Below, piece by piece: positions 29,141-54,437 of a stretch of DNA of 64,000 nucleotides. The DNA comes from Acholeplasma sp. CAG:878. GTDB taxonomy: Bacteria > Bacillota_I > Bacilli_A > RF39 > UBA660. The position numbers and the translations under genes were made by a program. Location: NCBI GenBank assembly GCA_000432255.1, contig HF989926.1, positions 65 to 64,064 of the forward strand, read 5' to 3'. Under the pieces are notes generated by a model. The model saw nothing but the letters and a program-made list of their open reading frames with translations, searched no databases and was not told where the DNA came from. Every line of letters begins with the position of its first letter. Positions within the stretch are counted from its first letter, which is position 1.

Positions 29141-29371
29141 TTATCTATAGTATGGCCCATAGTAAGGTGGATATGGATAATATGGATATGGTTGATAGTA
29201 TGGTCTATTATATCCACCATAGAAAGCAGGTGCGATTGCTGCTCCTGTAACTCCTCCTAATAAAAATGGAAAAACAAAGCCTCCAACTCTTTCATCGTTT
29301 GGATTAACTTTATAATTGTTAGGTTTAAACTGTTCATAATTAACAGGTTGGTAATAACCATTTGGTCTCAT
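29141..29371 (-). CDS. Tyr/Pro/Gly-rich small protein (76 aa), possible spore-coat-like structural protein
   Basis: The C-terminus is ...GGYNRPYYQPYPYYPYPPYYGPYYR. RBS AAAGGAG lies 7 nt before the ATG. The composition recalls Tyr-rich spore coat proteins, and the gene is adjacent to sporulation-type genes. Confidence 0.6.
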   Translation of the reverse strand: MRPNGYYQPVNYEQFKPNNYKVNPNDERVGGFVFPFLLGGVTGAAIAPAFYGGYNRPYYQPYPYYPYPPYYGPYYR

Positions 29372-29459
29372 ATAAAAACTCCTTTCATTTTATCTTATGT
29401 AGGCTTTAAAAAAATGTTAAAAAAAACAAATATGCTCATATAATTTATTAGGTGATTTT

Positions 29460-30269: not shown

Positions 30270-30308
30270 TATTAAATTATTTTCATATATTTTAATGGGA
30301 GGAAAATT

Positions 30309-30962
30309 ATGAAAAAAATAATACCATTAAAAAAGGAATTGAATTTTAATAATAATTTGGCTGAGGTAACTAGTATCTCATTAGAACACAATTTAAATTT
30401 AGAAAACGAACATGTTTTAGGTGAACTTATAATTACTGGTACATATAAAATAAATGATACAAGCATAAACGTCGAAAATTTTGATTTTAAGATACCTGTT
30501 GATATTGAAATTAGTAATCGTTATGATATAAGTAATTTAAAAATTGATATTGACGATTTCTTCTATGAAGTATTAGATAATAGTACATTAAATGTATCTG
30601 TTGCTATTGCATTAGATAATTTAGAAGAAAAAGTGATAAAGGAAGAAAAGGTAGAAAATACAGTTGATGTTCCAATTGAAACTGTTACCGAAAATATAAT
30701 TGAAGATGTAAAACCATTTCCAATTAAAGAAGCAGAAGAAAGAATTAGCCAAGAAGAAGTAGGAAGTATATTTACTAATTTTGATGAATCAAAAGAAACT
30801 TATGTTACTTATAAAGTTTGTATTGTAAAAGAAGGGGATAATATAGATAGTATATTATTAAAATACAATATTACAAGAGAGACTCTTGAACAATATAATA
30901 ACTTAAGCGAAATAAAAATCGGTGATAAATTAATTATTCCAGCTGTTTATGCAAAAAATTAA
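30309..30962 (+). CDS. SpoVID-like protein (SPOCS/DUF3794-like N-domain + C-terminal LysM)
   Basis: The C-terminal LysM motif is YVTYKVCIVKEGDNIDSILLKYNITRETLEQYNNLSEIKIGDKLIIP. The N-domain resembles SpoVID, and the gene is followed by a ysxE-like gene as in Bacillus. Confidence 0.55.
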   Translation: MKKIIPLKKELNFNNNLAEVTSISLEHNLNLENEHVLGELIITGTYKINDTSINVENFDFKIPVDIEISNRYDISNLKIDIDDFFYEVLDNSTLNVSVAIALDNLEEKVIKEEKVENTVDVPIETVTENIIEDVKPFPIKEAEERISQEEVGSIFTNFDESKETYVTYKVCIVKEGDNIDSILLKYNITRETLEQYNNLSEIKIGDKLIIPAVYAKN

Positions 30963-31845
30963 TGAAATTTTAAAAAAATATAATATAAAACCTCATCGCT
31001 ATGAAAAAAATGGGAAAGTTATAATAGTAAGCGATGAGGTTAATAAATATGTTATAAAAAAAAATCAAAGGAATCAAGAAATCTTTGAATATTTAAGAAA
31101 TAGAAGTTTTGACTATTATCCTAAAATATTAAATGATTCTAATGATTCCTATGAAATAAGTGAATATATTTATGATGATTACATTCCAGATGAACAAAAA
31201 ATGTTAGATTTAATAAAGTTGGTTAGTCTTTTACACAATAAGACAACTCATTATAAGGAAGTAGATTTTGCAGATTACAAAACAATATATGAAACCTTAT
31301 CAAACAATATTGAGTATTTATATAGTTATTATAATGACATTATAACACTTATTGAAACTAAAGTTTATATGAGTCCAAGTGAATATTTATTAGCGAGAAA
31401 CATTTCAAAAATATTTGGTTCATTAAATTTTAGTAAACAAGAGTTAGAAAAATGGTATAAATTAGTTGAGAATAAAACGAAACAAAGAGTTGTTGTTCTA
31501 CACAATAATTTAGATTTAAGCCATTTCAGAAGTAATACTAAAAATTATTTACTTAGTTGGGATAAAGCTAAATTAGGAATACCAATTTTTGACTTATATA
31601 TTCTATATAAACGCCATGGATTAGATTTCAATTTTGAGGAAATTTTGAAATATTATGAGTCTTCTTACAAATTGCAAGAAGATGAAAAAATTTTATTTTT
31701 CATTTTAATTGCTTTGCCAGATAAAATAGAATTTGATGGGACTTTATATGAGCAAACCAAAAAGATAGGTAAATTTTTAGATTTGTCGTATAAGACCGAA
31801 AGCCTCATCTCACCATATTATACGAAAAAGGAGCCAAGCAATTAA
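30949..31845 (+). CDS. CotS/YsxE-family spore coat protein (aminoglycoside-phosphotransferase-like kinase fold)
   Basis: Kinase-like motifs VVLHNNLDLSHF and SWDKAKLGIPIFDL. It overlaps the spoVID-like gene, giving spoVID-ysxE synteny. Confidence 0.6.
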   Translation: MQKINEILKKYNIKPHRYEKNGKVIIVSDEVNKYVIKKNQRNQEIFEYLRNRSFDYYPKILNDSNDSYEISEYIYDDYIPDEQKMLDLIKLVSLLHNKTTHYKEVDFADYKTIYETLSNNIEYLYSYYNDIITLIETKVYMSPSEYLLARNISKIFGSLNFSKQELEKWYKLVENKTKQRVVVLHNNLDLSHFRSNTKNYLLSWDKAKLGIPIFDLYILYKRHGLDFNFEEILKYYESSYKLQEDEKILFFILIALPDKIEFDGTLYEQTKKIGKFLDLSYKTESLISPYYTKKEPSN

Positions 31846-32054
31846 TAACCATAAGATAAATAGTAAAAAGATATTTAATCTTGTAACTATAAGCAAAGTA
31901 ATAATAAGTTGCCAAAAAAATATAACACAACAAATTACTAAACACATTAAGCATGTTCCTCTTGACCATCTTTTAAACATTATACTCACCTAATATTATT
32001 TTATGACTTTTAAAAAAAAAGAATTGGGTGTATACTATATATAGGTGGTTTTTT

Positions 32055-33284
32055 ATGAAAAAAAAATACAAAGTTTTTAATATAGTAGTATTTATTATTG
32101 GGGTTTTGGTAGTCTCTTTCGCTATATTTTTCATATTTAAAAAAGAGGAACCTAAAAAATTAATTGATTTTAAAGGTATGACATTAGAAGAAGTTTTAAA
32201 ATACGCAAATGAAAATAAAATAACGATTAATAAAACTTTTTCTAATGATGATACCATTTTAAAAAATTATGTAATATCACAAAGTGTATTGCCAAATACA
32301 AAACTTACTGAAGGACAAGTTGTCGATATAGTAGTGTCTATAGGACCAGATTATGCCAAATACAAAGTTGATGAATTAGGATTTGTCCCAATTATGATGT
32401 ATCATGGAATTCATGATAAAAAAAATAGTGAAACAGAATATACTGGTGGGAATATCGATTATGCAGGTTATCAAAGAACAACAGAAGCATTTAGAAATGA
32501 TTTAGAATTCTATTATAAAGAAGGATATAGAATGATTAGACTAAACGATTATATAAATGGCATAGTTGATGTAGAACTAGGTAAAAGTCCTATCGTTTTA
32601 ACATTTGATGATGGATTAGAGAATAATATCAAAGTGACAGGGTTAGATAGCGATGGTAATATAATAATTGATCCTAATAGTGCGGTTGGAATTTTAGAAG
32701 AATTTAAGAAAAAATATCCGGATTTTAATGTAACTGCAACATTTTTTGTAAATGGTGGATTATTTAATCAAAAAGAGTACAATGAAAAAATTCTTAATTG
32801 GCTAGTTAATAATGGTTATGATGTTGGAAACCACGCGTATAGTCATCCAGATTTTACTAAAATAAGTGGTGAGGCAAGCATTAAAGAAGTGGGAAGTGTT
32901 TATAAAATGCTTGATGAAATTATTCCAGGAAAATATGTTAAAATTGTTGCTATGCCTTTCGGCTCACCATATAGTACTAGTCATGAAAATTTTAAACATA
33001 TAATGAGTGGTAACTATAATGGATATGAATATGAAACAGAAAGTGCATTAAGAGTTGGTTGGGAAAGTGAAAAATCTCCTTATTCTTCTTCATTTAATAA
33101 AATGTTTTTAAAAAGAATTAGAGCATATGATAATAATGGAAAAGAATTTGATATTGAAATGAACTTTAAAAGATTAAAAGACACTAGATATGTATCTGAT
33201 GGAAATAAAGATACAATAACAATTTTAGATGCAGATGAAAAATATTTAGGAGAAACTTATAATTTAGAAGTTATAAAATATTGA
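32055..33284 (+). CDS. Membrane-anchored PASTA-domain + polysaccharide deacetylase (NodB) protein; first gene of the pilus-like operon
   Basis: TM helix, then a PASTA-like domain (LIDFKGMTLEEVLKYANENKITI...VVDIVVSIGP), then NodB motifs (LTFDDG, HAYSHP). GGTGG lies upstream of the ATG at 32055. Confidence 0.7.
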   Translation: MKKKYKVFNIVVFIIGVLVVSFAIFFIFKKEEPKKLIDFKGMTLEEVLKYANENKITINKTFSNDDTILKNYVISQSVLPNTKLTEGQVVDIVVSIGPDYAKYKVDELGFVPIMMYHGIHDKKNSETEYTGGNIDYAGYQRTTEAFRNDLEFYYKEGYRMIRLNDYINGIVDVELGKSPIVLTFDDGLENNIKVTGLDSDGNIIIDPNSAVGILEEFKKKYPDFNVTATFFVNGGLFNQKEYNEKILNWLVNNGYDVGNHAYSHPDFTKISGEASIKEVGSVYKMLDEIIPGKYVKIVAMPFGSPYSTSHENFKHIMSGNYNGYEYETESALRVGWESEKSPYSSSFNKMFLKRIRAYDNNGKEFDIEMNFKRLKDTRYVSDGNKDTITILDADEKYLGETYNLEVIKY

Positions 33285-33332
33285 TTTAAGGTTAAAAATA
33301 ATTTATAATGATATAAAAGGTAGTTGGTGAAG

Positions 33333-34826
33333 ATGAATAAACGCGGATTTACATTAGTAGAATTAATAGGAACAATTGTAATATTACTTGTTTTAAGTTT
33401 ATTAGTTTTTCCTAATTTATTAAATTTAATTAAAAATTCAAAAAAAGATATAAGTACTTCAACTAAAGATTTTATATATGGACAAGCAAAGTCATATATA
33501 TATGATAATGTTAATGGTTATACTTTAAAAGAAGGAAATATTTATTGTATAGGGTTGAAAGATTTAGTAAGTAAAAATTATTTAAATACTCCATTAAAAG
33601 ATGCTGAATCTGGAAATGATATCGATTTAAGTAAGCAAATAGAGGTAAAAGTTAACAATAATGATTATAGTTATGAATTAGTTGAGACCTGTACTCCTAA
33701 AAGTTATTACACTGACAATAGTGGTGCAAATACGCCTAAATTATTTAATAATATGGTACCAATCAAATACGAGAATAATAAATGGTTAGTAGCTGATTTA
33801 TATTCAAAATGGTATGATTATAATTCTAAACAATGGGCAAATGCAATAGTATTAAATAGTGGAGTTACTAAAAATGTAGGGGATGAAGTAACAGAAGAAG
33901 AAATATCTTTATGGTATGTATGGGTTCCAAGATATAAATATACTATATTTAATGGAAACAAAGGAAATGTTTCTGAACAATTAATCAACATAACCTTTGA
34001 AAATGGAGTAGATAAAACAGGGACATTAAGATGCAATGATAATGCAGATGGAAGTGAAACATGTACTGATAATACATATGGAAGTATAGTAAATGGAAAA
34101 AGTACATACACACATCCAGCATTTAAATTTGGTAATACTAATTTAACTGGATTCTGGGTAGGAAAATTTGAAGTGAGTGGAAGTACAAGTACAATCACAG
34201 TTAAACCAAATGTAACAAGTTTAAGAAATCAAACAGTATCAAGTTTCTTTACAGCCATTCAAAATGTAAAAACAACATATGGAATAAATAATGCAGATTC
34301 ACATATGATGAAAAATATGGAATGGGGAGCAGTAGCATACTTAAAACAAAGTAAATATGGACTAGGAACAACAGATATAGCAGTTAATACAAATTCAAGT
34401 TATTATACTGGTGGAGGAACAAGTGATGCATATAAAACAAATGTTGCTCAGTCAACAACGGGAAATATCTATGGAGTATATGATATGAGTGGTGGCGCTT
34501 GGGAATATGTAATGGGTAATTACAATGATACTATAAGTTCTTCGGGCTTTAGTTCAATGCCGGATAAAAAGTACTATAATAAGTATACAAGTAGTACTGG
34601 AAAAATGGGCGATGCCACTATGGAAACGTTAAAGACTTCTGGTACTTATGGTGGAGGAGATGGATGGTATTCAGATTTTACAAAATTCCCACCAACTAAT
34701 GGTCAATGGTTTTATCGTAGTGGTGGCAATAGTGATGCAAAATATGCTGGTGTATTCTATTTCTATAGTTCTGGTGGTCAATCAATTAAAACAATTTCAT
34801 CTCGTGCAGTTTTATCTGCTCAATAA
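33333..34826 (+). CDS. Prepilin-type (N-terminal cleavage/methylation) protein, 497 aa, with C-terminal FGE-sulfatase/SUMF1-like (C-type-lectin fold) domain
   Basis: The leader MNKRG|FTLVELIGTIVIL has Gly at -1, Phe at +1 and Glu at +5, followed by a hydrophobic helix. The C-terminal motifs NMEWGAVAYL, IYGVYDMSGGAWEYVMGNY, WFYRSGGNS and SSRAVLS match remembered FGE-sulfatase signatures. Confidence 0.7.
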   Translation: MNKRGFTLVELIGTIVILLVLSLLVFPNLLNLIKNSKKDISTSTKDFIYGQAKSYIYDNVNGYTLKEGNIYCIGLKDLVSKNYLNTPLKDAESGNDIDLSKQIEVKVNNNDYSYELVETCTPKSYYTDNSGANTPKLFNNMVPIKYENNKWLVADLYSKWYDYNSKQWANAIVLNSGVTKNVGDEVTEEEISLWYVWVPRYKYTIFNGNKGNVSEQLINITFENGVDKTGTLRCNDNADGSETCTDNTYGSIVNGKSTYTHPAFKFGNTNLTGFWVGKFEVSGSTSTITVKPNVTSLRNQTVSSFFTAIQNVKTTYGINNADSHMMKNMEWGAVAYLKQSKYGLGTTDIAVNTNSSYYTGGGTSDAYKTNVAQSTTGNIYGVYDMSGGAWEYVMGNYNDTISSSGFSSMPDKKYYNKYTSSTGKMGDATMETLKTSGTYGGGDGWYSDFTKFPPTNGQWFYRSGGNSDAKYAGVFYFYSSGGQSIKTISSRAVLSAQ

Positions 34827-34918
34827 CAAATACAAACTGATAAAATATTTTATCAGTTTTAATATTGCTAAAAATAAACATTTATTGTATAATTAAATGA
34901 GAATAAGGAGTGGTTTAG

Positions 34919-36517
34919 ATGGTATTAAGAAAGCCGTATGCCTTTTTTATAAAACATTTTAAGCTAATACACTTAATATTAGCAGTTTTATGTATTTATT
35001 CAACAGTACAAACACATAAATTATATACTTTTTTCAGTGATTATATTTATAAAACAGTTAATGTTATAGGACAAGACCTAGTTGGTTCATTATATACTGG
35101 TTTTATGACTTTCGGACCGATTTTAATAATTATATTAACAATTACAATAATGGTTATAATGATTGTAAAAGAAAAACCATTTACATTTTATATAATAAAT
35201 ATATTAATATTTATATATGTAATAATTATTTCACAAGTATGTCAATCTACACTATATGATATGCAAATATCCTTGTTAGATATAAGAGCAATCAGAATAG
35301 TAAGAGATTTAACTTTGGTTAGTTTTGTAATGCAAATAATAAGTTCTATTATTATTGGAATTAGAGGAACAGGCTTTGATGTTAAGAAATTTGATTTCGG
35401 ACAAGATTTACAAGATTTAGAAATAGATGAAAGTGATAGAGAAGAATTTGAAGTTGATTTTTCAGTTGATAGAAATAAAACAAAAAGAAAATTAAAATAT
35501 CAAATTAGGAAGTTAAAATATATTTTCAAAGAAAATAAATTAGCATTTATAGTAGTTACAGTATTTATATTATTAGTAACAGGAGGTTTAACTTATTATT
35601 ATATAAGTACAAGACCTAGGGTTTTAAATCAAGGCGAATTATTTAGAGGAAATGGTCTAAGTTTATCAATTGAAAATAGTTATTTAACTAGATATGATTA
35701 TAAAGGACAAGAAATAGAAAAAGATTTTTCTTTTCTAGTTTTACAAATTAAAGTACTTAATTTAAGTAAATATCAAAATACTCTTCCATTTGCAACATCA
35801 AAAATCGTTATAGGTTCTTATTCATACACGCCAACTTTAAATTATGAAGAGTATTTATTTGATTTTGGTAATATTTATAAAAATGAAAATATAGGTGAAG
35901 AATATACTTATAAAACTTTAATATATAAAATTCCTACTTTACTAACTGATGAAGAAATATTGTTTAATTATGTTAATAAAGTAAATTCAAAAGAAAAATT
36001 CTTTAAAGATGAAGTTAAAATAAGATATATTGATTTAGATAAAGAAAAAGATAAAAAAACTTATGAATTAGGTGAAGAAATTAGTTTTGAAGACTTACCT
36101 TTTAAAAATTATAAAATTAAAATTGATTCTTATGAAATTAAACCTTCGTTTAAATTAGAATATAACTATTGTTATAAAAAGGAATGTACTAAATCATATG
36201 AATATGTAAAACCTAGTATAGTAAGCAATTATGATAAAGTTTTATTAAAATTAAAAGGAACTTATAATTTGAGTGATGAAGTAAATATCGAAGGCGTATA
36301 TGATATTTATGATTTAATTGATAAGTTCGGTTATTTAAAATATGAATTAAATAATGAAGTTAAAACTCAAAATGTTAAATTTAAGGAAGTTACTAGTAAT
36401 AAAGCTAAAGAGATGGATACATACTATATAGAAGTATTAAAAGAATTACAAAATGCTTCAAAGATATCTTTAATTATTAAAATTAGAAATCAAACTTACG
36501 AATATACTTTAAAATAA
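34919..36517 (+). CDS. Polytopic membrane protein with large extracytoplasmic C-terminal domain (532 aa), function unknown
   Basis: About five predicted TM helices in the first ~230 aa, then a beta-rich soluble domain. RBS AAGGAG lies upstream. Confidence 0.6.
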   Translation: MVLRKPYAFFIKHFKLIHLILAVLCIYSTVQTHKLYTFFSDYIYKTVNVIGQDLVGSLYTGFMTFGPILIIILTITIMVIMIVKEKPFTFYIINILIFIYVIIISQVCQSTLYDMQISLLDIRAIRIVRDLTLVSFVMQIISSIIIGIRGTGFDVKKFDFGQDLQDLEIDESDREEFEVDFSVDRNKTKRKLKYQIRKLKYIFKENKLAFIVVTVFILLVTGGLTYYYISTRPRVLNQGELFRGNGLSLSIENSYLTRYDYKGQEIEKDFSFLVLQIKVLNLSKYQNTLPFATSKIVIGSYSYTPTLNYEEYLFDFGNIYKNENIGEEYTYKTLIYKIPTLLTDEEILFNYVNKVNSKEKFFKDEVKIRYIDLDKEKDKKTYELGEEISFEDLPFKNYKIKIDSYEIKPSFKLEYNYCYKKECTKSYEYVKPSIVSNYDKVLLKLKGTYNLSDEVNIEGVYDIYDLIDKFGYLKYELNNEVKTQNVKFKEVTSNKAKEMDTYYIEVLKELQNASKISLIIKIRNQTYEYTLK

Positions 36518-36551
36518 TAAAAAAATATGCTATAATTGAAGGGAGTTAAAT

Positions 36552-37196
36552 ATGAAAAAAATATTATTATTACTTGTATTACTTTGTCTTCCTTATACAA
36601 AAGTTAATGCTTTCTATTGTACTTATCAAGAACAAGCAAGATTAAAAAGCTTAGCTACTAATGTAAATATAAGTTATGATTTCAATGAGAGTAATAAAAC
36701 TTTTACTTTTAACTTAATTAATTTAAATAAGGATTTGTATTTCATGGATAGAACAGATGATAAGATTTACAATTATACAAAAAATGAAATAAATTTGACG
36801 GGTTACAAAAGTGGACAAAAAGTTAAATTTGAATTTTATTCAGATGTTGAATTTTGTGATAAAGTGTTATATACTTATGTAGTAACACTACCAATATATA
36901 ATCCTTATTACAAAGAAAAAGTTTGCGAAGATGTCCAAAATTATAATTTGTGTCAAAAGTGGAGTAATCATGGTTTAAGTAGAACAGCTTTTATTGAAAA
37001 AGTAAACGAATATAAAAAAACATTAGAAAAACCAAAAGAAGATGAAATAAAAGAGGAAACTAAAAAACATATTTCTCTTTTGACTAATGTAATAGAGTTT
37101 TTAACAAGTTATTATTATATTTTTATAATATTAATAGTTGGTATTATTGTTACAGTAATAATTGTTAAGAATAAGAAAAGTAATATATATAAGTAG
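36552..37196 (+). CDS. Secreted, C-terminally membrane-anchored Cys-containing protein (214 aa), function unknown
   Basis: A signal peptide (MKKILLLLVLLCLPYTKVNA) and a C-terminal TM helix with a basic tail. Confidence 0.55.
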   Translation: MKKILLLLVLLCLPYTKVNAFYCTYQEQARLKSLATNVNISYDFNESNKTFTFNLINLNKDLYFMDRTDDKIYNYTKNEINLTGYKSGQKVKFEFYSDVEFCDKVLYTYVVTLPIYNPYYKEKVCEDVQNYNLCQKWSNHGLSRTAFIEKVNEYKKTLEKPKEDEIKEETKKHISLLTNVIEFLTSYYYIFIILIVGIIVTVIIVKNKKSNIYK

Positions 37197-37205
37197 GAGG
37201 TACCA

Positions 37206-37607
37206 ATGAAAGAATCGTTTTGGGGCGCTATGGTCGTAGGACTTGGACTTGTAGCAATATTCTTTATATACTTTTTTCAATCGGTAACTAATGTTGATGA
37301 ACATAACTACCATTTGTTAAAAGAAGCAACCGAAGCTGCTATGCATGATGCATTAGATTTAGGTTTATATAGAGAAAAAGGAGAAGTTAGAATCGATAGA
37401 GAGAAATTTGTTGAAAATTTCTTAAGAAGATTTGCTGAGAGTGCAACTTTATCTGATAATTATCAAATTGATATTTATGATGTCAATGAAGAACCACCTA
37501 AAGTTACCTTGGTAGTTAAAAGTGGAAAGGATACTGGTTTAACTGGAGAAAAAATGGAATTCACTATTGAAAACAAATTAAATGCAATATTTGAAATACC
37601 ATATTAG
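37206..37607 (+). CDS. N-terminally membrane-anchored small protein (133 aa), function unknown (pilus-assembly accessory?)
   Basis: A single N-terminal TM helix (GAMVVGLGLVAIFFIYFF) and a soluble acidic domain. It is tightly coupled to the flanking genes. Confidence 0.5.
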   Translation: MKESFWGAMVVGLGLVAIFFIYFFQSVTNVDEHNYHLLKEATEAAMHDALDLGLYREKGEVRIDREKFVENFLRRFAESATLSDNYQIDIYDVNEEPPKVTLVVKSGKDTGLTGEKMEFTIENKLNAIFEIPY

Positions 37608-37627
37608 AATAAGAAAGGGATGATTTT

Positions 37628-38497
37628 ATGAATAATGTTTTAGTTTCAATTAAAAGATTTTTTAAAAACAAAAATGTCGTTACAGTATTAGGAGTAATAT
37701 TAATATTAGGTTTATTATATTTTGGTTATAATAGAACTATTAAAGAACAAACAAATCCAGTTAGAATTCCAGTTGCTACACAAACAATTCAACCAAGAAC
37801 TTTAATTACAGATGAAATGGTTACATTTATAAGTGTACCAAAGTCAATGGTATCAGATAACGTATTGAAGGGTACAGGTAGTATTGTAGACAAGTATACA
37901 GCTGTTAATACAGTAATTCCAAAAGGAAGCATGTTTTATTCAGATGTATTAGTTGAAAAAGAAGATTTACCAGATTCAGCATTTGTTGAAGTTCCAGTTG
38001 GACAAACACCATATGCATTATCTGTTACTAGCCAATCAACTTATGGAAATTCAATTTTTCCAGGTAACATTATCGATGTTTATATGAAAGCAACTGATGA
38101 AAATGGACAAATTATTGTAGGTAGATTATTAGAGGATGTTAAAGTATTAGCTGTTAAAGATAATGCAGGTAACAATGTATTTGAAGATACAACAGCCAAT
38201 AGAACTCCATCAACACTATTATTTGGTGTTAATAATGAAACTTACGTATTATTAAAAAGAGCTGAATACTTAAAATCAAAAGGAGTTGAACTATTCCCAG
38301 TTCCTTATGGTGGTAATGTTCAATTAACAGGTAATACTAAAGTTGATAGAGAAGAATTAGTTGAATTAATCGATTCATTAAGTATTGGTTATATAAGTGA
38401 AGATGAATTCCAAGATCAAGTTCAAGACGAAATTGAAAAAAATCAACAAGAACAACAAGAAAATCAAAATAGTCAACAAAATAATGGAGCACAATAA
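37628..38497 (+). CDS. CpaB/RcpC-like pilus assembly protein (SAF domain)
   Basis: N-terminal TM helix, a SAF-like segment (PVRIPVATQTIQPRTLITDEMVTFISVPKS) and a Gln-rich C-terminus. Confidence 0.6.
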   Translation: MNNVLVSIKRFFKNKNVVTVLGVILILGLLYFGYNRTIKEQTNPVRIPVATQTIQPRTLITDEMVTFISVPKSMVSDNVLKGTGSIVDKYTAVNTVIPKGSMFYSDVLVEKEDLPDSAFVEVPVGQTPYALSVTSQSTYGNSIFPGNIIDVYMKATDENGQIIVGRLLEDVKVLAVKDNAGNNVFEDTTANRTPSTLLFGVNNETYVLLKRAEYLKSKGVELFPVPYGGNVQLTGNTKVDREELVELIDSLSIGYISEDEFQDQVQDEIEKNQQEQQENQNSQQNNGAQ

Positions 38498-39573
38498 TGC
38501 ACGAAACATTATTTTCGCAAATTGATTTTGGACCACTATTACCATATTTAAATAGTGATGATGTCACTGATATTTCATACAGTAACAATGGTCAAATATG
38601 GTTAAAAACATTATCTCGTGGTATCTTTAGGGTTGAAAATTCTGAAGTAAATAATGCCATGATGGAAAAACTTGCTTTCCAATGCTCAAACGTTATGGGG
38701 AAAACATTTAATATGGCTCACCCATTCTTGGATTCAGAAAGTCCAGAACTTCGTATGAATTTCGTTCACGAATCAATTGCTACAAATGGTATTGCATGTG
38801 TTATCCGTAAAACACCAGCTAAAATAAGACTTGAAAAAGAAAAAATAATTGCTGAAAAGTATATTACTTTAGATGTTCATGATTTTTTAGTTCAATGTGT
38901 TTTAGGACATTGTAATATAATTGTTTGTGGTGAGACTGGTAGTGGTAAAACGGAGTTTGTTAAATATTTGGCATCTAAAACAAAAGAAAATGAAAAAATA
39001 ATTACAATTGAAGATACTTTGGAACTCCATTTAGATAGAATATTTCCTCATAGAGATATTGTTGCAATGAAAACAAATAATGTTGCTTCATACTCAGAAG
39101 TATTAGTTACTTGTATGCGTCAAAACCCTAAATGGATATTATTATCCGAAGTTCGTAGCGCTGAAGCAGTAACGGCAGTTCGTAACTCAATTTCATCAGG
39201 ACACTATATTTTATCTACAATCCATGCTGACAAAGCATCCGCTATACCTACTCGTATGTATAGTTTGCTTGAAACTAGCCAAGATGTTGAGCAATTCTTA
39301 AAAACAATTCATAGATATGTTCAATTAGGAGTATTAGTAAGAGGTTATCAGGATAAAGTAACAAAAAGGTTTGTTCGTGAAATAGGAGAAGTTACAGAGT
39401 TTTATGTCGATGAAGACAATAACTCAAGATACAATGTTATTTATCAAAAAGCGCCAACTGGTAAAGTAATAAGACATAATCCAACAAAATATTTAATCGA
39501 TTATATTGAAGGACAAGGTGTTACTCTACCAGAAGGGTTTGTTAATCCAGCTTATGATATTAAAGAAGATTAA
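38497..39573 (+). CDS. CpaF/TadA/VirB11-family secretion ATPase
   Basis: Walker A (VCGETGSGKTEF), Walker B with the Asp/His boxes of the T2SS-E/VirB11 superfamily, and a size of 358 aa typical of TadA. Confidence 0.75.
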   Translation: MHETLFSQIDFGPLLPYLNSDDVTDISYSNNGQIWLKTLSRGIFRVENSEVNNAMMEKLAFQCSNVMGKTFNMAHPFLDSESPELRMNFVHESIATNGIACVIRKTPAKIRLEKEKIIAEKYITLDVHDFLVQCVLGHCNIIVCGETGSGKTEFVKYLASKTKENEKIITIEDTLELHLDRIFPHRDIVAMKTNNVASYSEVLVTCMRQNPKWILLSEVRSAEAVTAVRNSISSGHYILSTIHADKASAIPTRMYSLLETSQDVEQFLKTIHRYVQLGVLVRGYQDKVTKRFVREIGEVTEFYVDEDNNSRYNVIYQKAPTGKVIRHNPTKYLIDYIEGQGVTLPEGFVNPAYDIKED

Positions 39574-39586
39574 GGAGGAGTAAAAA

Positions 39587-40489
39587 ATGAATGAGTTTAT
39601 TTTTATAGCAATAGCCTTTATACTAATTTTTATCATTGTATATAGAAAAAATAGTGGTGAAAATGTATATAAGTATATAAGTAGAAATGTAGGACTTATA
39701 TATGAAAAATTTGCTCCTTATTCTTTTAAAATGGTAAGGGAAAAAGTTAAAGAACTAGGACAAGAATATACACCTAGACAATATGCAGTTCAAATAATAG
39801 CCTTTTCCGTAGGTGCGGCAGTTGTATCATATTTATACTTTTATAACTTAGTTTGGTGTATTGTATATATAGCAGTTGCGGTAGCAATTATTCCTTACTT
39901 AGCTTATTTAAGATGTAAAAGATTATATAGTGAATTTATATTTGAACAAATTCAAGTTTATACTACCAACACTATAATGGAATTTGCAACAACTCAAAGT
40001 TTTGTTAAAGCCTTAGAAGGTGTTTATGAATCTGGTGTATTAGAAGACCCAGTTAGAAGCGATGTTAAGATGATGATTGATTTGGCATATAAAAATGGTA
40101 CAATTACTGAATCAGTTGATTATATGAATAGTAGATATGATTATTACATAGTTAGAAATATGCACCAACTATTTACCCAAATTACTAATGAAGGTGCAAG
40201 AGATGCATCTGGTTCGTTAGAAAATATGTCACTTGATATTGATATGTTAGTTGAAGGCGTTTATAGAGATAGAATCGATAGAGCAACATTCCATAAAAAA
40301 TTCTTACAATTTGGTGTTGTATTATATTTAATGATTATGTTAGTTCAGTTCTTACTTGGAACTGAAACATATCTTGAAATGCTTAAAATTTGGTATGTTC
40401 AATTATTACTACACGGAATTATAATTATTAATACATATTTTATCCTTAATGGAGAAAAATTCTATAATGAGAATGTGGGGGCTGAGTAA
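39587..40489 (+). CDS. TadB-like (T2SS-F-family) inner membrane protein
   Basis: Polytopic membrane protein of ~300 aa immediately downstream of the ATPase, as expected for TadB. The sequence match itself was not verified. Confidence 0.5.
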   Translation: MNEFIFIAIAFILIFIIVYRKNSGENVYKYISRNVGLIYEKFAPYSFKMVREKVKELGQEYTPRQYAVQIIAFSVGAAVVSYLYFYNLVWCIVYIAVAVAIIPYLAYLRCKRLYSEFIFEQIQVYTTNTIMEFATTQSFVKALEGVYESGVLEDPVRSDVKMMIDLAYKNGTITESVDYMNSRYDYYIVRNMHQLFTQITNEGARDASGSLENMSLDIDMLVEGVYRDRIDRATFHKKFLQFGVVLYLMIMLVQFLLGTETYLEMLKIWYVQLLLHGIIIINTYFILNGEKFYNENVGAE

Positions 40490-41277
40490 TGTTATTTTTA
40501 GCAATCGGTATAATTTTATTGTTTATAATGTTTTATAATAACTATATTGATACTCAAGGCTTTATTAAAGAAACTCAACCTATATTTGGATTTCTTAAAG
40601 AAAGTGATTATGAATTTTTAGTTAGTGTAAAATATGGTGGAATTGATAAAGTTGATATTAACAAATTATTTGGAATAAGAGTTAGAAACGGTTTATTGGT
40701 AATTGTATTAATGTTATTCTACTTTATTAAAGATTTAAAATTTATCTATATTTTAGTTTCTGTAATAGTAGGATATGTTGTATTTAAATCTTCATATACA
40801 AGTTTAAAATCTTATTACAAAAAGAATTTATATAATATTAATTTAATGTTACCTTACTATTTAAAAAGTTTGGAAATTTTAGTTCAACACTATACTGTTC
40901 CAGTTGCACTATCTCGTTCAATTGAAACAGCACCTGATGTTTTTAAACCAGGCTTAAGAAAATTGGTTGACAGAATAGAAGCTGGAGATTCGACGGTTGA
41001 CCCATATATGGATTTTGCTAAAGAATATCCAGTTAGGGATTCAATGCGTATGATGAGATTGTTATACAGACTAGGGTTGGGAAGTCAAGAAAACAAACAA
41101 GAACAATTAATGATGTTTTCAAGAACTGTATCTAACTTACAAAACAAATCTCGTGAACAAAAATACGCTGAAAGACTTGAAAGAATGGAAAAGAAAACCA
41201 TGATTATGTTATTTGTAACTGGTGGTGGTATACTACTATTAATGTTGTTATCAATGATGATGATGATGAATTATTAA
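40489..41277 (+). CDS. TadC-like (T2SS-F-family) inner membrane protein
   Basis: Polytopic membrane protein of 262 aa, translationally coupled to the preceding gene (ATGA overlap). Confidence 0.5.
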   Translation: MLFLAIGIILLFIMFYNNYIDTQGFIKETQPIFGFLKESDYEFLVSVKYGGIDKVDINKLFGIRVRNGLLVIVLMLFYFIKDLKFIYILVSVIVGYVVFKSSYTSLKSYYKKNLYNINLMLPYYLKSLEILVQHYTVPVALSRSIETAPDVFKPGLRKLVDRIEAGDSTVDPYMDFAKEYPVRDSMRMMRLLYRLGLGSQENKQEQLMMFSRTVSNLQNKSREQKYAERLERMEKKTMIMLFVTGGGILLLMLLSMMMMMNY

Positions 41278-41362
41278 CAATGATTTTACAAAAAAAAATA
41301 AAAAAATGTAAAAATTGTTAAAATTGTGTTATAATAAAGATATACGAGAAGGTGGTGATTAG

Positions 41363-41596
41363 ATGAAAGAAGCTGCTGGAGAAGCAAATATGACAGTTAT
41401 TACAATCATTCTAATTGGAGTTATCGCAGCTATAGCTATTCCACTTGTAAGAAATGCGATGACAAGTACAAGTAAACAAGCTTGTTGTAATAGTGCCGGA
41501 GGTGTTTGGTCAGGAGGAGAATGTGCTGAATTATCTGCTAGTGGCCAAAGCACATATGATGCATGTGTTTCTAAAACTGAAAATGCAGGACAATAA
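41363..41596 (+). CDS. Small Flp-like (atypical) pilin candidate, 77 aa, with 4-Cys C-terminal region
   Basis: A strong RBS GAAGGTGGTG, then a short polar leader ending in Gly (MKEAAG), a ~22-aa hydrophobic segment and the C-terminus CCNSAGGVWSGGECAEL...DACV. It has its own terminator. The Flp EY motif is lacking. Confidence 0.55.
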   Translation: MKEAAGEANMTVITIILIGVIAAIAIPLVRNAMTSTSKQACCNSAGGVWSGGECAELSASGQSTYDACVSKTENAGQ

Positions 41597-41603
41597 TATG
41601 AAT

Positions 41604-41636
41604 CTCGTTTCTTGAAAATAGAAACGAGGTTTTTAT
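41604..41636 (+). terminator. Rho-independent terminator after the small pilin gene
   Basis: CTCGTTTC-ttgaaaata-GAAACGAG hairpin followed by GTTTTT. Confidence 0.8.
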
Positions 41637-41829
41637 TATGTCTGAATTAACATATCAATATGAAATTGAAATGTAATAAAAATTGTCATGCAAAATAAGT
41701 TAAACTTCTTGTACAAGTTTAGTAATATCTAAAAACATATTTTATTATGAAATAAAAGAGATTGGGTATTGAAAATTTGTGTTAAATATTATACAATTAT
41801 GTAAATATGTGTTGGGAGTGTGTTTTGGT

Positions 41830-44622
41830 ATGTTTGGTAGTTCTAATACAAAAGATAATAAAATGATTTCAAAAAACCGCAAATGCCTTTTTTGTGGTTT
41901 TAATGTTAAGATGGGATTCACGTTAATTGAATTGCTTGCTGCGTTGGTAGTTTTGGCGATAATAGCTTTAATAGTATATCCTACAATTGGCAAATTATTA
42001 GCAAATAATAAAACAAAAGCATATGAAAAACAATTAGATGTAATAGAGGTTGCTGCTTCTAACTGGCTAATTGAAAATGAAGGCAAATTGAAAGATAACG
42101 CCTATGCTCTACCAATAAATGATATAGTTGGAAGCGGATTTATAGAAGAAAATGAATTGATTAATCCAATTAATAACGAACCACTTACAGGATGCATTTT
42201 CATAACATGGAGAAAAAATATTAAACAATACGAATATAATTATGTTGAAAATTGCGAAGAGTTTATAGTACCAAAATTATTGTCATTAAAAGCAAGTAGC
42301 AGTGAGAATGAACACGGATGGAGAAACAAAGATTTTTATGTTTCTCTAAGTGGAGAATATTTAGAAAACTATTATTATTGTATAGATAACAAAAAATGTG
42401 AACCAAATATAATGGTAACTGATGTAAATAAGACTATAGCATTTAATGAAGAAGGAATAAAATACGTTTGTGCTTACGGAACGAATAAATCAGGAGAAAC
42501 AGAATCGATTTGTGAAAAATATAAATTAGATAAAACGAAACCAGTTATTGGGAGTATTGTATTTAGTGGAAAACAAGGTTTAAATAATTGGTTTGTATCA
42601 GACGTAACTGTTAATGTAACAGAATCAACTGATGCTTTAAGTGGAATAGATAATAATATATTAAGTCCAAGTGAAACATCAATAACAAAAGATACTAAAG
42701 GAACAACATATACTTTAACTGCAAAAGATAAAGCTGGAAACATAAGTAGTGTTAGTTATGCTGTAAAAATAGATAAAACCAAACCAATACTAGGAACACT
42801 AACAATAAGTGGAACTAAAGGAAATAATGATTGGTATAAAAGTGATGTAGTATTTAGTGTTAAGGATGGTAGTGATAGTATGTCAGGACACGCTTCTACT
42901 ACATCAAGTATTACAAGTATAACCAAAGATACTAAAGGAACGAAAGTAATATTAACAACCAAAGATAATGCTGGTAATACTACAACTAAAGAATATATAA
43001 TTAAAATGGACAAAACAGCACCTACAATAGAAATGGTTAATCCGACTAATGGTAATTGGACAAATAAAAATATAGAAATAACAAGTAATTTTTCTGATAA
43101 TATATCAGGAATAGTACCATCATCATTAGCGTGGTCAGATGATAATACTAATTGGCATAACTATTCTAATACAAGTACAACAACATTTAAAGATACGTGG
43201 AGTGGTGAAGGAAATAGAACGGGTTATAACAAAGTGTGTGATTATGCTGGAAACTGTAGTACAACATCTACTCCAATTAGAATCGATAAAACCAATCCAA
43301 TAGTAGGGGAGTTAGTAGTAGCAAGTGGGACTTTAGGCACAAATGGTTGGTACACAAGTAATGTAGTGTTTAGTGTGAAAAATGGAAGTGATGCATTAAG
43401 TGGACATGGTAGTACAACAAGTAGTATAAGTAGCATAACAACAAATACAAAAGGAACAAATGTGGTAGTGACAACAAAAGATAAAGCAGGAAATAGTACA
43501 GCAAAAACATACACATTTAAAGTAGATAAAAACGCACCTACCATAACTCCTAAATATTCAACTGTAACAATAGGAAGCATAAGTGAAGTAAATGTATCGG
43601 ATTTGTTTATAATTAATTATTCAATTAGTGGAGGATACGTAACTTGTAATGTTAATAAAACAAAAGATATAAAAGCTGTTAATAATCCACTTAGATGTAC
43701 AGCAACTGGAGGAAATGGATTAATTGCTGAAGCAAAAATAAATGTTAAAAACCAATTAGCAAGTATTGCTGTTACTACCCCACCAAATAAAACATTATAT
43801 TCCGTTGGTTCTGCTTTTGATAAAACAGGTATGGTAGTTACAGCATATTATAAAGATGGAACCTCAAAAGTGGTTACCAATTATACTATTGAGTCAAGTG
43901 TAACACGATATGGCCGTTCTCATATAGGTAAGGTTAAAAAGAACTGGGGGATCAATTATTTATATCCAACTAGAAGAGACCTTGATGAATACGATGATTT
44001 AATTATAACTTATACTGAAGATGGTGTTACTAAAACCACAACTACGCCAATAACGGTTGCTATATATGCAAATCAAGTAAAAAATATTGTTATAGCTTCA
44101 GAACTTTCAAGAGTTAATGTAGCTAAAGTAACAAATTATTATTCAAATCCGGGTGGTACAAGTCATATTAAAACTTCATATGAAATACCAACAGATAACG
44201 AGTATTATAGATATGAGGTTGGTTCTAATTATATTAGACTGCATTCGTTAAAAGCAGGATATTATTCAAGTGATTCTATAAGAGTTCATTTTGAATTATA
44301 CGATGGTACTATATTTAGAGCGGGATATTTTGAAAATATAGATAGCGTAAATACAGATATTAAATATAGTTTTACAGTAGCAAGATTTATTAAGAATTCC
44401 CCACCTTATGGACAATTCTTAGGAGCTACAGGATATTTATTCCAACAACCGCTAACAACCATAGTGTTAGGATGGCAAACATTCAATAATATAACAGATG
44501 CTTCTGGATCTGCGCCTATTGGTGCTTCAGCTCAAAACGGAGCGACTTATATGGAATATAAGTTTTCTAACTTTGTTATGAATGGTAGAAATATGAATGT
44601 TGTGTATACACTTGATTCTTAA
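41830..44622 (+). CDS. Giant prepilin-type protein (~930 aa) with pilin-like N-domain, four tandem ~95-aa Ig-like repeats and a Big_3-like module; candidate pilus adhesin
   Basis: The prepilin motif ...KMG|FTLIELLAALVVLAIIALIV has Glu at +5. The repeats read DKTKPxIGxLxxSGxxGxNxWYxSDVxFSVxDGSDxxSG...TKDTKGT...KDxAGNxS...DKTxP. A Big_3-like segment is LASIAVTTPPNKTLYSVGSAFDKTGMVVTAYYKDGTSKVV. The start is uncertain (41779, 41830 or 41863). No LPXTG sorting signal. Confidence 0.65.
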   Translation: MFGSSNTKDNKMISKNRKCLFCGFNVKMGFTLIELLAALVVLAIIALIVYPTIGKLLANNKTKAYEKQLDVIEVAASNWLIENEGKLKDNAYALPINDIVGSGFIEENELINPINNEPLTGCIFITWRKNIKQYEYNYVENCEEFIVPKLLSLKASSSENEHGWRNKDFYVSLSGEYLENYYYCIDNKKCEPNIMVTDVNKTIAFNEEGIKYVCAYGTNKSGETESICEKYKLDKTKPVIGSIVFSGKQGLNNWFVSDVTVNVTESTDALSGIDNNILSPSETSITKDTKGTTYTLTAKDKAGNISSVSYAVKIDKTKPILGTLTISGTKGNNDWYKSDVVFSVKDGSDSMSGHASTTSSITSITKDTKGTKVILTTKDNAGNTTTKEYIIKMDKTAPTIEMVNPTNGNWTNKNIEITSNFSDNISGIVPSSLAWSDDNTNWHNYSNTSTTTFKDTWSGEGNRTGYNKVCDYAGNCSTTSTPIRIDKTNPIVGELVVASGTLGTNGWYTSNVVFSVKNGSDALSGHGSTTSSISSITTNTKGTNVVVTTKDKAGNSTAKTYTFKVDKNAPTITPKYSTVTIGSISEVNVSDLFIINYSISGGYVTCNVNKTKDIKAVNNPLRCTATGGNGLIAEAKINVKNQLASIAVTTPPNKTLYSVGSAFDKTGMVVTAYYKDGTSKVVTNYTIESSVTRYGRSHIGKVKKNWGINYLYPTRRDLDEYDDLIITYTEDGVTKTTTTPITVAIYANQVKNIVIASELSRVNVAKVTNYYSNPGGTSHIKTSYEIPTDNEYYRYEVGSNYIRLHSLKAGYYSSDSIRVHFELYDGTIFRAGYFENIDSVNTDIKYSFTVARFIKNSPPYGQFLGATGYLFQQPLTTIVLGWQTFNNITDASGSAPIGASAQNGATYMEYKFSNFVMNGRNMNVVYTLDS

Positions 44623-44789
44623 AAAGATGAAACAATTTAAACTGACTAATATAATTAGGTGTTAGTTCTTTGTAAAATATTGTTGGGGAGTAATTAATTT
44701 AACTAAAAAATTCTGATTATGAATACGATGAATAGTCTTAAAGTTAGTGGTAAGTCATATTCGATAGTTGTAGAAGCAGGATTTTAGTA

Positions 44790-44820
44790 AAAATTGAATT
44801 ATTTTTAAAAATTCAAGATT
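44790..44820. terminator. Bidirectional hairpin terminator between convergent genes
   Basis: TTGAATT-atttttaaa-AATTCAA hairpin flanked by A- and T-runs. Confidence 0.5.
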
Positions 44821-46117
44821 AATTTCTTGAATTTTTTAGTGTTTTTTTGACTGCAATAATATGATGAACTGTAACATAAATAATGTTAATTGATGTAGAT
44901 ATAACTAATCCCCATAGTCCAATTTTAAGAAAACTAAGCAAAAACAAAGTTATAGTTCGTAAAATCATTCCAATTAATGTTCCCCTCATAGCGCAACGTG
45001 CTAATCCCATTGCTTGAAGAGAACTAGTTAAAGGTGCTTGAATGTAGTGAAGTAGGCATACTATTGATAAAACTTTAATATAAGGAATACCTAAATTAGT
45101 ATCATATATTAGTTTTAAAGGAATATCTGGAATAAAGATAAAAATCAAAGTGCAAGGAATACCAATTAATAAACTAAAAAATATAGCCTGTCTTATCTTT
45201 TTAGAAACATATCTTTTATTATTATTAGAATAACCTTTACTAACAACTGGTAATAATGCTTGTGAAATAGCCATCGTAAAAAATGAAGGAAGTAATATTA
45301 ACGGCATAACAAATCCATTTAAAATACCATATTCATTAACTATAAATTCATTAGAATAGCCAACTTTAAGTAAAACGAAAGTTAAAATAATAGGTTCAAA
45401 AAAAGAGCCAATATTTCCAATTAGTCTTGAACCTGTTGAGGGAAGAGATATATCTAGTATATCTTTTATATAACTTTTATTTGGTTTTATATCGTTTTTA
45501 TTTATTTTTTTAGGTAATAAAATTAAAAATATAATAATACTAGATAATTCACTAAATACATTAGATAAAATTAAAAAAGCAACAGCAAATTCAATTCCTT
45601 TACTTAAACAAAATGGAACAAATAAAACAATTGAAATAAGTCTTACAATATCTTCAACAATATTTGTTATAACATGAGGAAGCATTCTTTGTTTTCCAAA
45701 AAAATATCCTCTTAAAATACTTGAAATACTAATAAAAGGTAATACTATTCCCATTGCAAGAATTCCATAATAAGTTTTAGGTTCATGAAGTAAGTTATTT
45801 GCTATAAAATCAGAACTTATATATACTAAAGCAATTATTATAATATCGATTAATAAAATTAATGTCGAAGCATTTAATACTATTTTTTTGTTATTTTTCT
45901 TATCTTCAGAAACAAGTTTTGATATGGCAGTTGGCATACCTAAAGTGCAAAGTGATATTAAAAGAGAAAAAGTTGGTACCAATAACATATAAATACCGAT
46001 TCCATAACTACCAACATATCTAGTCATAATAATTCTTATAAACATACTAAGTATTTTAGTTACTAACCCACCGATTATTAATATAATAGTAGATGTAACA
46101 AATTTATTTTTTTTCAT
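44819..46117 (-). CDS. SpoVB-like MOP/MurJ-superfamily polysaccharide flippase
   Basis: The N-terminal signature ...GIGIYMLLVPTFSLLISLCTLGMPTAISKLVSE matches the SpoVB pattern G.G.Y...P...L...G.P.A.SKLV.E. About 12 TM helices. Confidence 0.65.
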   Translation of the reverse strand: MKKNKFVTSTIILIIGGLVTKILSMFIRIIMTRYVGSYGIGIYMLLVPTFSLLISLCTLGMPTAISKLVSEDKKNNKKIVLNASTLILLIDIIIIALVYISSDFIANNLLHEPKTYYGILAMGIVLPFISISSILRGYFFGKQRMLPHVITNIVEDIVRLISIVLFVPFCLSKGIEFAVAFLILSNVFSELSSIIIFLILLPKKINKNDIKPNKSYIKDILDISLPSTGSRLIGNIGSFFEPIILTFVLLKVGYSNEFIVNEYGILNGFVMPLILLPSFFTMAISQALLPVVSKGYSNNNKRYVSKKIRQAIFFSLLIGIPCTLIFIFIPDIPLKLIYDTNLGIPYIKVLSIVCLLHYIQAPLTSSLQAMGLARCAMRGTLIGMILRTITLFLLSFLKIGLWGLVISTSINIIYVTVHHIIAVKKTLKNSRN

Positions 46118-46181
46118 AAATCACCTTTAAAAATATTTTGTTTTCTTATATAATAGTATGTGAAAGACAAGGTGTTTTTGA

Positions 46182-46448
46182 ATGGAATTTAATAGTTTAG
46201 AAGAATTATATGAAAGAATTAAGCCAGCATTAAGATGTAAGCAAAGTGAAATGAAAAGAAACGGATATAATTATATTAAATTAGAAGATATATGGAATTA
46301 TTTAAAAGAAGTTAAATGGAAAAATGATACTAATCTATCACTTTATGATATGGTAAGTGATGTATTAGAAGTTCCTAATGAAGTAATCGACGACTATTTA
46401 AAACATAAACTAAATTTAAGCAAGCGAACAATATACTTTGGAGAGTGA
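46182..46448 (+). CDS. ComN-like post-transcriptional regulator family protein (88 aa)
   Basis: Small acidic protein. The position between the spoVB-like gene and relA mirrors the B. subtilis neighbourhood (spoVB ... comN ... relA-dtd). Confidence 0.4.
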   Translation: MEFNSLEELYERIKPALRCKQSEMKRNGYNYIKLEDIWNYLKEVKWKNDTNLSLYDMVSDVLEVPNEVIDDYLKHKLNLSKRTIYFGE

Positions 46449-46453
46449 TTTAT

Positions 46454-51221: not shown

Positions 51222-54437
<3,216 letters not shown>

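Follow-up and report, generated by a model that had tools for sequence, protein, structure and literature searches.

A divergent Tad-type gene module, probably the assembly half of a filament machine, in gut bacteria of the RF39 lineage

Gene layout of the locus

We describe a gene cluster at positions 32055 to 44622 of a 64,000-nucleotide stretch of DNA from Acholeplasma sp. CAG:878 (contig HF989926.1; this whole stretch is hereafter the window). One part of the cluster, 34919 to 41596, probably encodes the assembly half of a divergent Tad-type (type IVc-like) filament machine of monoderm bacteria, found in the lineage RF39/CAG-822 and with a contact role for a type IV secretion system (T4SS); judging from homology and gene order, we put the probability of this reading at about 0.6. 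The genes and features are as follows.

32055-33284, plus strand: PASTA and polysaccharide deacetylase protein, 409 aa (Pfam PASTA, E 1.5e-10; Polysacc_deac_1, E 2.3e-14)
33324-34826, plus strand: g04, modular type IV prepilin, 500 aa (N_methyl, E 8.5e-6; TIGR02532)
34919-36517, plus strand: g05, clade-specific membrane protein, 532 aa; first gene of the conserved core
36552-37196, plus strand: g06, 214 aa, N-terminal signal sequence and C-terminal membrane anchor (from sequence); conserved core
37206-37607, plus strand: g07, DUF5411 protein, 133 aa, pilin-like (Pfam DUF5411, E 2.4e-54)
37628-38497, plus strand: g08, CpaB/RcpC-like protein, 289 aa, N-terminal transmembrane (TM) helix (Pfam RcpC, 35 bits)
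38497-39573, plus strand: g09, CpaF/VirB11-type secretion ATPase, 358 aa (T2SSE, E 7e-27)
39587-40489, plus strand: g10, TadB-like platform protein, 300 aa, very divergent (profile-profile comparison and fold)
40489-41277, plus strand: g11, TadC-like platform protein, 262 aa, paralogue of g10 (hhalign)
41326-41337, plus strand: predicted extended -10-like element TGTTATAAT, with a strong Shine-Dalgarno sequence, ahead of the small pilin gene
41363-41596, plus strand: g12, Flp-like small pilin, 77 aa (from sequence; weak archaeal Pilin_N match)
41600-41632, plus strand: intrinsic terminator-like hairpin, 13-bp stem followed by a T-run
41830-44622, plus strand: g13, modular type IV prepilin, 930 aa (N_methyl, E 1.6e-4; Big_3; TIGR02532, 24.7 bits)

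Every open reading frame (ORF) from 32055 to 44622 lies on the plus strand, and the genes number 11 rather than the twelve counted in an initial annotation, which had read the whole cluster as one co-directional operon with gaps of 0 to 90 nucleotides (nt). Up to the small pilin gene the intergenic gaps are, in order, 39, 92, 34, 9, 20, -1, 13, -1, and 85 nt; the co-direction and the overlaps at 38497 and 40489 thus stand, whereas one gap exceeds the upper limit. Co-direction is weak evidence for an operon, because almost all window genes are on the plus strand and the GC skew is positive nearly everywhere (window G+C, 22-36%). The hairpin at 41600-41632 is the sole strong plus-strand terminator match within 29000-46500, and g13 starts at least 233 nt 3' of the 77-aa gene and about 200 nt past the terminator. 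Given this terminator and the wide gap that follows it, the sequence does not suggest one single operon across 32055-44622, and g13 in particular is separated from the operon in which it had been included. A promoter scan (159 sites observed versus 135 expected) was uninformative in DNA of 26% GC.

A conserved block in related species

A one-genome-per-species collection was scanned with a four-sequence profile, which yielded at least 495 matching stretches; the locus comparisons below use the best 80. All 80 come from metagenome-assembled genomes (MAGs) of uncultured Bacilli or "Tenericutes," some of them complete genomes of 1.2-1.5 Mb. The block conserved in these species loci runs from g05 to g12. 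Identity to the window proteins is highest for the ATPase (g09, 72-85%) and the TadB-like protein (g10, 70-84%), followed by the TadC-like (g11, 61-76%), DUF5411 (g07, 50-72%), and CpaB-like (g08, 40-68%) proteins and by g05 (31-47%); g06 is present in most related loci at 25-49% identity, and the small pilin is present in all.

None of the 80 other species loci has a homologue of the PASTA-deacetylase adjoining the core. The domains assigned to this lead gene were read correctly, but its membership in the module does not hold; judging from gene neighborhoods, it is a bystander outside the conserved block. The window neighbors uvrA, relA, and a flippase gene likewise do not flank the core in other species' loci.

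Many relatives encode additional secreted proteins (one or two, of 520-950 aa) between g06 and the DUF5411 gene, where the window species has none (L027 4205-7030, L044 4746-7592, L065 4320-7052, L071 2227-7519, and L054 3773-7576). These proteins have a signal peptide and a Gly-rich start, and the one checked has no Pfam match. Locus L071 also holds, between TadC and the small pilin gene, a 399-aa ORF (13650-14849) that looks AAA ATPase-like by eye. Five contigs with an RF39-type locus (L010, L014, L024, L026, and L085) are filed as MAGs of Muribaculaceae, Sphaerochaetaceae, or Roseburia; as their proteins are 70-95% identical to the window proteins, mis-binning is likelier than transfer.

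A Tad-like core

The core had been described as CpaB-like, CpaF/TadA ATPase, TadB-like, and TadC-like genes, and the first two are borne out by direct family matches. Compared with the sequences of solved structures, g09 matches CpaF best (E 7e-18), ahead of the VirB11 protein HP0525 (4e-16) and FlaI (9e-16), and reaches about 1e-8 with PilB/GspE; PilB, GspE, and PilT are about ten orders of magnitude weaker than CpaF. By its T2SSE match and with CpaF as its top Protein Data Bank (PDB) sequence match, g09 corresponds to the hexameric TadA/CpaF-type ATPase of a Tad/Flp system. The RcpC/CpaB component of Tad systems is represented by g08, which scores 35 bits on Pfam RcpC, above the 28.8-bit cutoff; on the NCBIfam CpaB equivalog TIGR03177 it scores 45.9 bits, below the 71-bit cutoff.

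The platform genes are identifiable by less direct means. Neither g10 nor g11 has a T2SSF match in Pfam or NCBIfam family searches, and the g10 profile finds no match among PDB sequences. Relatives of g10 are few, 241 clusters at E <=1e-3 among 1.84 billion representatives, with a T2SSF match in none. The g10 profile nevertheless aligns with a Priestia plasmid protein that PGAP annotates as "type II secretion system F family" (probability 99.3%, E 1e-20) and that itself scores 24.2 bits on Pfam T2SSF, and the predicted fold of g10 places EpsF and OutF at the top Foldseek ranks. The g11 profile aligns with the Priestia protein in the TadC position (hhalign probability 98.2%, E 6e-14) and, over the cytoplasmic domain, with the g10 profile (probability 95.8%, E 8e-9), identifying the two as paralogues. 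As in Tad systems, there are two paralogous platform proteins, each with one GspF-type cytoplasmic domain. The TadB/TadC assignment, as judged from profile-profile comparison and fold, is thus right, though by indirect evidence and not by family match. Among the profiles named for the locus, T2SSE, RcpC, and N_methyl/TIGR02532 found matches, whereas T2SSF and Flp_Fap did not.

A shared pilin leader

The g12 protein consists of a leader, MKEAAG, a hydrophobic helix, and a tail with four Cys, and it matches archaeal Pilin_N weakly (Pfam, E 0.0044). We consider it the probable major pilus subunit. The DUF5411 protein, g07, begins with the leader MKESFWG, again followed by a hydrophobic helix. A leader of the form M-[KR]-E-x-x-[GA] with a hydrophobic helix is in fact common to four pilin-like families: g12, DUF5411, and two minor pilins of 141-172 aa, which relatives encode and the window does not. 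TadE models match neither DUF5411 nor the two minor pilins, the pilin-like leader notwithstanding.

Two accessory membrane proteins

Neither g05 nor g06 has a family match in Pfam or NCBIfam. The g05 model (predicted local distance difference test score, pLDDT, 82) shows a four-helix membrane bundle that leads into an acidic, disordered linker on the cytoplasmic side; after a fifth TM helix come two ectodomains, both beta-sandwiches of the YjhA/YcdA type. The linker holds an invariant R-G-x-G-F-D-x-K-x-F-x-F motif. As this places a GxGFDxK-like motif just past TM4, g05 was considered as the missing prepilin peptidase and rejected: the model shows this stretch as disordered, and a fold of four-helix bundle plus beta-sandwiches gives no A24-like match.

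Continuation into a T4SS

In relatives, the small pilin gene is followed on its 3' side by the two minor pilin genes, a gene for a protein of about 330 aa, and several T4SS_pilin-like genes. Further 3' lie a TrbL/VirB6-like gene (Mbov_0396 family), a PrgI/VirB3-like gene, and a split VirB4 (NCBIfam VirB4_plasma, 360 bits). Where the sequence extends at least 8 kb beyond TadC (50 loci), minor pilins follow in 49, the 330-aa gene, at the TadZ position, in 46, and VirB6 or VirB4 in 40. Even in a more distant relative (27% identity), CpaB-TadB-TadC are joined to the 330-aa gene and to a protein that looks VirB6/TrbL-like by eye. The module had been presented as a self-contained pilus/adhesin operon; in relatives it is instead the first half of a larger Tad-plus-T4SS set.

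The window species itself probably carries this T4SS half at a second locus. VirB4 proteins with accessions CCY27326.1 and MBS5778831.1 are 86% identical to the VirB4 of locus L012, and the exact window TadB-like protein has accessions CCY28748.1 and MBS5778381.1; as the series CCY... and MBS5778... are common to both, VirB4 and the TadB-like protein probably come from the same deposited assemblies. The second locus (L092) holds a short VirD4-like gene, both minor pilins, the 330-aa gene, a T4SS pilin, VirB6-like, VirB3-like, and VirB4 genes, a SpoIID+CHAP hydrolase, and a full VirD4/TraG coupling protein, after which housekeeping genes resume. No relaxase was found by Pfam among the ten L092 proteins tested.

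VirB4 is consistently encoded by two ORFs with an overlap of a few bases, one for a TraC-like N-terminal part of about 180 aa and one for a 594-aa ATPase part (L012 17253-19591; L092 9459-11785); across many species clusters, the latter is 86-100% identical. The T4SS_pilin-like genes vary in number: one complete genome has seven tandem paralogues of about 105-229 aa (L054 13882-17239), while most other loci have one or two.

Giant prepilins beside both loci

The two large proteins at the edges of the cluster have classical type IVa/type II secretion system prepilin N-termini, as initially annotated: g04 reads KRG|FTLVEL and g13 KMG|FTLIEL, each with Glu at +5, and both match N_methyl and TIGR02532. 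These N-termini score best on ComGC, GspG, and ComGE models. Behind them, g04 has a C-terminal domain of about 370 aa with a weak FGE-sulfatase match (E 4e-5), and g13 has four tandem immunoglobulin (Ig)-like repeats of about 82 aa each plus a Big_3 domain. No PilB/ComGA ATPase, PilC/ComGB platform protein, or PilD/ComC peptidase is encoded within the 64-kb window.

In relatives' loci, GFTLxE prepilins occur in L022 and L081, and a g04-type C-domain occurs in L023. The L022 protein, a 522-aa homologue of g04 (49% identical), sits between the system's two minor pilin genes. No g13 homologue was found in other species' loci. At the second locus, just 5' of the VirD4-like gene, L092 encodes a 576-aa N_methyl prepilin whose C-domain is 59% identical to that of g04 (1627-3357); the L093 protein in the equivalent slot (158-3400) is at least 1080 aa long and consists of g13-type Ig-like repeats. 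The VirB4 of L092 and L093 is identical, yet one slot holds different giant proteins, as in a strain-variable cassette slot. Among strains of the window species, the core is 100% identical, while g04 is 93-99% and g13 84-100% identical, with strains L002 and L003 at 84-86% for g13. In L006, a run of four versus five T residues at about 8050 (window position about 42333) splits g13 into ORFs of 172 and 767 aa; the split may be genuine, as a frameshift or through phase variation, or it may reflect an assembly error.

Because giant prepilins border both halves in the window species and differ between strains, their link to the system looks real, yet lineage-specific. The proposed linkage of classical prepilins to a Tad-like core thus applies to the window species, in which they flank both loci; as a conserved design, the fusion of the two is contradicted by the synteny comparison.

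Genomic setting and source organism

Upstream of the locus lie the housekeeping genes nusA, infB, glmM, tyrS, tsaD, and uvrA, and downstream lie relA, dtd, and an AI-2E transporter gene. Exact copies of the ATPase, in unchanged gene order, occur on many human-gut metagenome contigs, and database entries for the exact window TadB-like protein are labeled "Candidatus Faecisoma sp." or "Acholeplasma sp." Candidatus Faecisoma corresponds to the GTDB genus CAG-878 in the order RF39, family CAG-822 (PMC8035907). RF39, as cited in PMC12306168, is prevalent in the gut and uncultured, and it has small genomes and many auxotrophies. Sortases are reported absent from RFN20 and ML615J-28, and RF39 is not among the groups named there (PMC10868615).

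Just 5' of the PASTA-deacetylase gene, 29460-31845 (plus strand) encodes a polysaccharide deacetylase, a SpoVID-N and LysM protein, and a YsxE-like spore coat protein. Given these spore and wall genes, the source organism is probably a walled spore former, although NCBI places it under Mycoplasmatota. Elsewhere in the window, 51320-54437 (plus strand) encodes a large serine recombinase (Resolvase, Recombinase, and Zn ribbon; 630 aa) overlapping a Mob_Pre (MobV) relaxase (432 aa), a pair that looks like a small integrative mobilizable element needing a T4SS in trans, and 16027-17304 (plus strand) holds a DUF4143/AAA_14 ATPase gene (Pfam).

Interpretation

From homology and gene linkage we infer how pilin processing, filament assembly, cooperation with the T4SS, and an adhesin role might fit together. 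The 77-aa pilin would insert into the membrane through its N-terminal helix, as would DUF5411 and the minor pilins encoded elsewhere (two proteins of 145-150 aa), and the short M-K/R-E-x-x-G leader of all four would be removed by a prepilin peptidase encoded in neither locus. The pilins would then be polymerized on the TadB/TadC-like platform, driven by the CpaF/VirB11-type ATPase, with the CpaB-like, g05, and g06 proteins making up the extracytoplasmic part. As the Tad-like module in most relatives runs straight into the T4SS, whose genes include those for coupling proteins and a wall hydrolase, the pilus most likely serves cell-cell contact for this transfer apparatus, which is of the Mycoplasma integrative conjugative element (ICE) type. 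The giant prepilins would be exchangeable, surface-exposed modular pilins with adhesin-like C-terminal modules, probably low-abundance or tip subunits; they appear to be attached to the system in this genus and not to define it.

Several observations weigh against this reading. The 77-aa Cys-rich protein had been singled out as an atypical candidate in place of a canonical Flp pilin, and rightly so: it has no Flp_Fap match at E up to 0.1 (Pfam), and its N-terminus, MKEAAG|EANMTV, lacks E5 and Y6 and hence the Flp processing motif G/xxxxEY. Across species this N-terminus is near invariant (MKEAAGEAN[ML]TV), which is unusual for a peptide that gets removed. The initial annotation also saw neither TadZ/CpaE nor a prepilin peptidase in the window, and closer searches agree: there is no TadZ homologue, no GxGDxK or A24-type motif, and no phmmer match to a TadV-like protein of Priestia. 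The 80 related loci likewise lack a small TM protein with the [GASP]GDx[KR] motif typical of A24 peptidases, the lone regex match being GDTK in L067, in a context that is not peptidase-like. Pilin cleavage is therefore hypothetical, as neither of the system's two loci nor related loci supplied a peptidase. TadZ/CpaE combines a receiver-like with a ParA/MinD-like domain; its possible counterpart in relatives and at the second locus, the protein of about 330 aa, draws no match from Pfam, NCBIfam, or PDB and aligns with the pCER270 ATPase at the P-loop only, and weakly (hhalign probability 24%, E 8.5e-4). VirB4, VirB6-like, and coupling proteins were not found in the 64-kb window, and accession numbering is what places the T4SS half in the same genome. 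In about 75 of the 80 species loci, no GFTLxE prepilin lies within reach, and the giant prepilins could belong to a separate Com or type IV pilus machine.

That last possibility can be put more strongly, with the Tad-like genes and the giant prepilins as unrelated neighbors and the latter serving a ComG pseudopilus or a type IVa pilus elsewhere in the genome. The affinity of the g04 and g13 N-termini for ComGC, GspG, and ComGE models, their need for a PilD/ComC-type peptidase that the locus does not encode, and the rarity of such genes near the system in other species all fit. We nonetheless think it unlikely, since three to four giant prepilin genes directly border the system's two loci, one slot shows a strain-level swap, and the system's minor pilin genes flank a g04 homologue in L022. 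Quite improbable is the opposite view, that a single eleven-gene operon encodes a stand-alone pilus/adhesin system whose Tad-like core polymerizes giant PilD-type prepilins as its main products. Tight co-directional spacing speaks for it, as does the recurrence of g04-type prepilins beside the core in L022, L023, and L081 and at the second locus, yet a terminator precedes g13, the PASTA-deacetylase and both prepilins are missing from about 75 of the 80 related loci, the small pilin is always present and has strong expression signals, and the system continues into T4SS genes in relatives.

The module might instead belong to an ICE, with the Tad-like pilus as a mating pilus distributed by horizontal spread. 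Its nearest annotated relatives are on large Bacillus and Priestia plasmids, the adjoining T4SS in relatives matches Mycoplasma ICE families, the chromosomal neighbors vary between species, VirB4 is very similar across many species clusters, and the MobV relaxase and serine recombinase lie about 7 kb downstream in the window. Against these stand the position of the window locus amid housekeeping genes (uvrA, relA, dtd, nusA, infB), where neither an integrase nor a relaxase adjoins it, the lack of a relaxase Pfam match in any of ten second-locus proteins, and the graded divergence of a system spread over at least 495 species representatives of a single clade; we hold horizontal spread of this kind to be a doubtful explanation. 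More tentatively than for the divergent Tad-type machine itself, we can picture the filament and the relaxase-less Mycoplasma-ICE-type T4SS as one composite, vertically inherited RF39 apparatus for contact-dependent acquisition of DNA or nutrients from adjacent cells. Its pilins would form a new class, with an invariant MKEAAG leader and no dedicated TadV, and giant GFTLxE modular pilins would act as strain-specific targeting tips. This is a speculative proposal, well below an even bet.

The divergent Tad-type machine would bear on how RF39 bacteria interact with other cells. With well-conserved proteins in at least 495 species representatives, and given the high identity of the TadB-like protein and VirB4, it is likely central to RF39 biology. 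It also gives the Pfam family DUF5411 a working assignment, that of pilin-like partner in Tad systems of monoderm bacteria, and implies that current T2SSF, Flp, TadE, and TadZ models overlook a whole branch of Tad-like systems. Finally, it may be a natural case in which Tad-type and classical prepilins are handled together.

Comparison with known systems

Tad-like loci of Gram-positive bacteria, including variants without a canonical Flp, have been catalogued (PMC3244431), and the Tad family moves often between lineages (PMC6668835). The window locus resembles the Tad/Flp (type IVc) systems of Caulobacter and Aggregatibacter and the monoderm loci of Bifidobacterium breve and Clostridia (PMC3244431) in its CpaF-type ATPase, its paralogous pair of single-domain platform proteins, its CpaB/RcpC protein, and its combination of a very small pilin with larger pilin-like proteins. 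Unlike them, it has a pilin without the Flp motif, no TadV in the locus, no TadZ between CpaB and the ATPase, platform proteins below the Pfam T2SSF cutoff, and the extra genes g05 and g06, as well as T4SS linkage in relatives. Taken together, the new pilin leader class, the missing local peptidase and TadZ, the new accessory proteins, the T4SS linkage, and the lineage-specific giant prepilins make up the unusual features of the locus.

Among 72,556 plasmids, the top protein matches for the window ATPase are on Bacillus plasmids, annotated "CpaF/VirB11 family." A Priestia koreensis plasmid has the order DUF5411 - SAF/CpaB - ParA-like ATPase - CpaF/VirB11 - TadB - TadC - small pilin-like genes; the window order is the same minus the ParA-like gene, with DUF5411 directly 5' of CpaB in both. 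Plasmid pCER270 (pXO1-type, Bacillus cereus group) follows the Priestia order from cpaB onward, with no annotated DUF5411 gene directly upstream. The plasmid modules differ from the window in sequence (about 29-32% identity), in the ParA-like ATPase between CpaB and CpaF, in lacking g05 and g06, and in their pilins, whose long leaders end in G|ML. The Priestia locus also encodes a 172-aa polytopic protein, annotated as hypothetical, with TD(V)K and PGDTK motifs (L090 4440-4958); it looks by eye like a TadV-type peptidase candidate and has no NCBIfam match.

A review of Bacillus conjugation does not discuss the plasmid Tad-like modules as pili, and as far as the literature searched goes, these modules appear to be annotated and unstudied. 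Literature searches on DUF5411, on pili or T4SS of RF39/RFN20, and on Bacillus plasmid Tad pili returned no description of the present system. The impression that the combination is unfamiliar from characterized loci therefore survives in that no paper found describes it, but it has to be tempered by these annotated relatives.

Modular type IV pilins such as PilB and PilC of Streptococcus sanguinis are assembled by a type IVa machine with PilD. Like them, g04 and g13 join a classical prepilin N-terminus to large modules, here weakly FGE-sulfatase-like or built of Ig-like repeats; unlike the case in S. sanguinis, the sole machine near g04 and g13 is Tad-like.

Pairings of a type IV filament with a T4SS-type DNA transfer machine that makes cell contacts have precedents in the R64 thin pilus (type IVb) with the IncI T4SS and in the Ups pili with Ced DNA import in Sulfolobales, as summarized in PMC12102498. 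Within the outline given there, the RF39 loci share this juxtaposition, with a different filament class and in different phyla, and the cooperation suggested here comes from gene linkage alone. A further parallel is found in Patescibacteria, which have a chromosomal, relaxase-poor T4SS of the MPF-FATA type (PMC12102498). Both are conserved chromosomal systems of reduced-genome lineages with multiple T4SS-pilin paralogues and no relaxase nearby; they belong to different phyla, and in RF39 the T4SS is joined in gene order to a Tad-like module.

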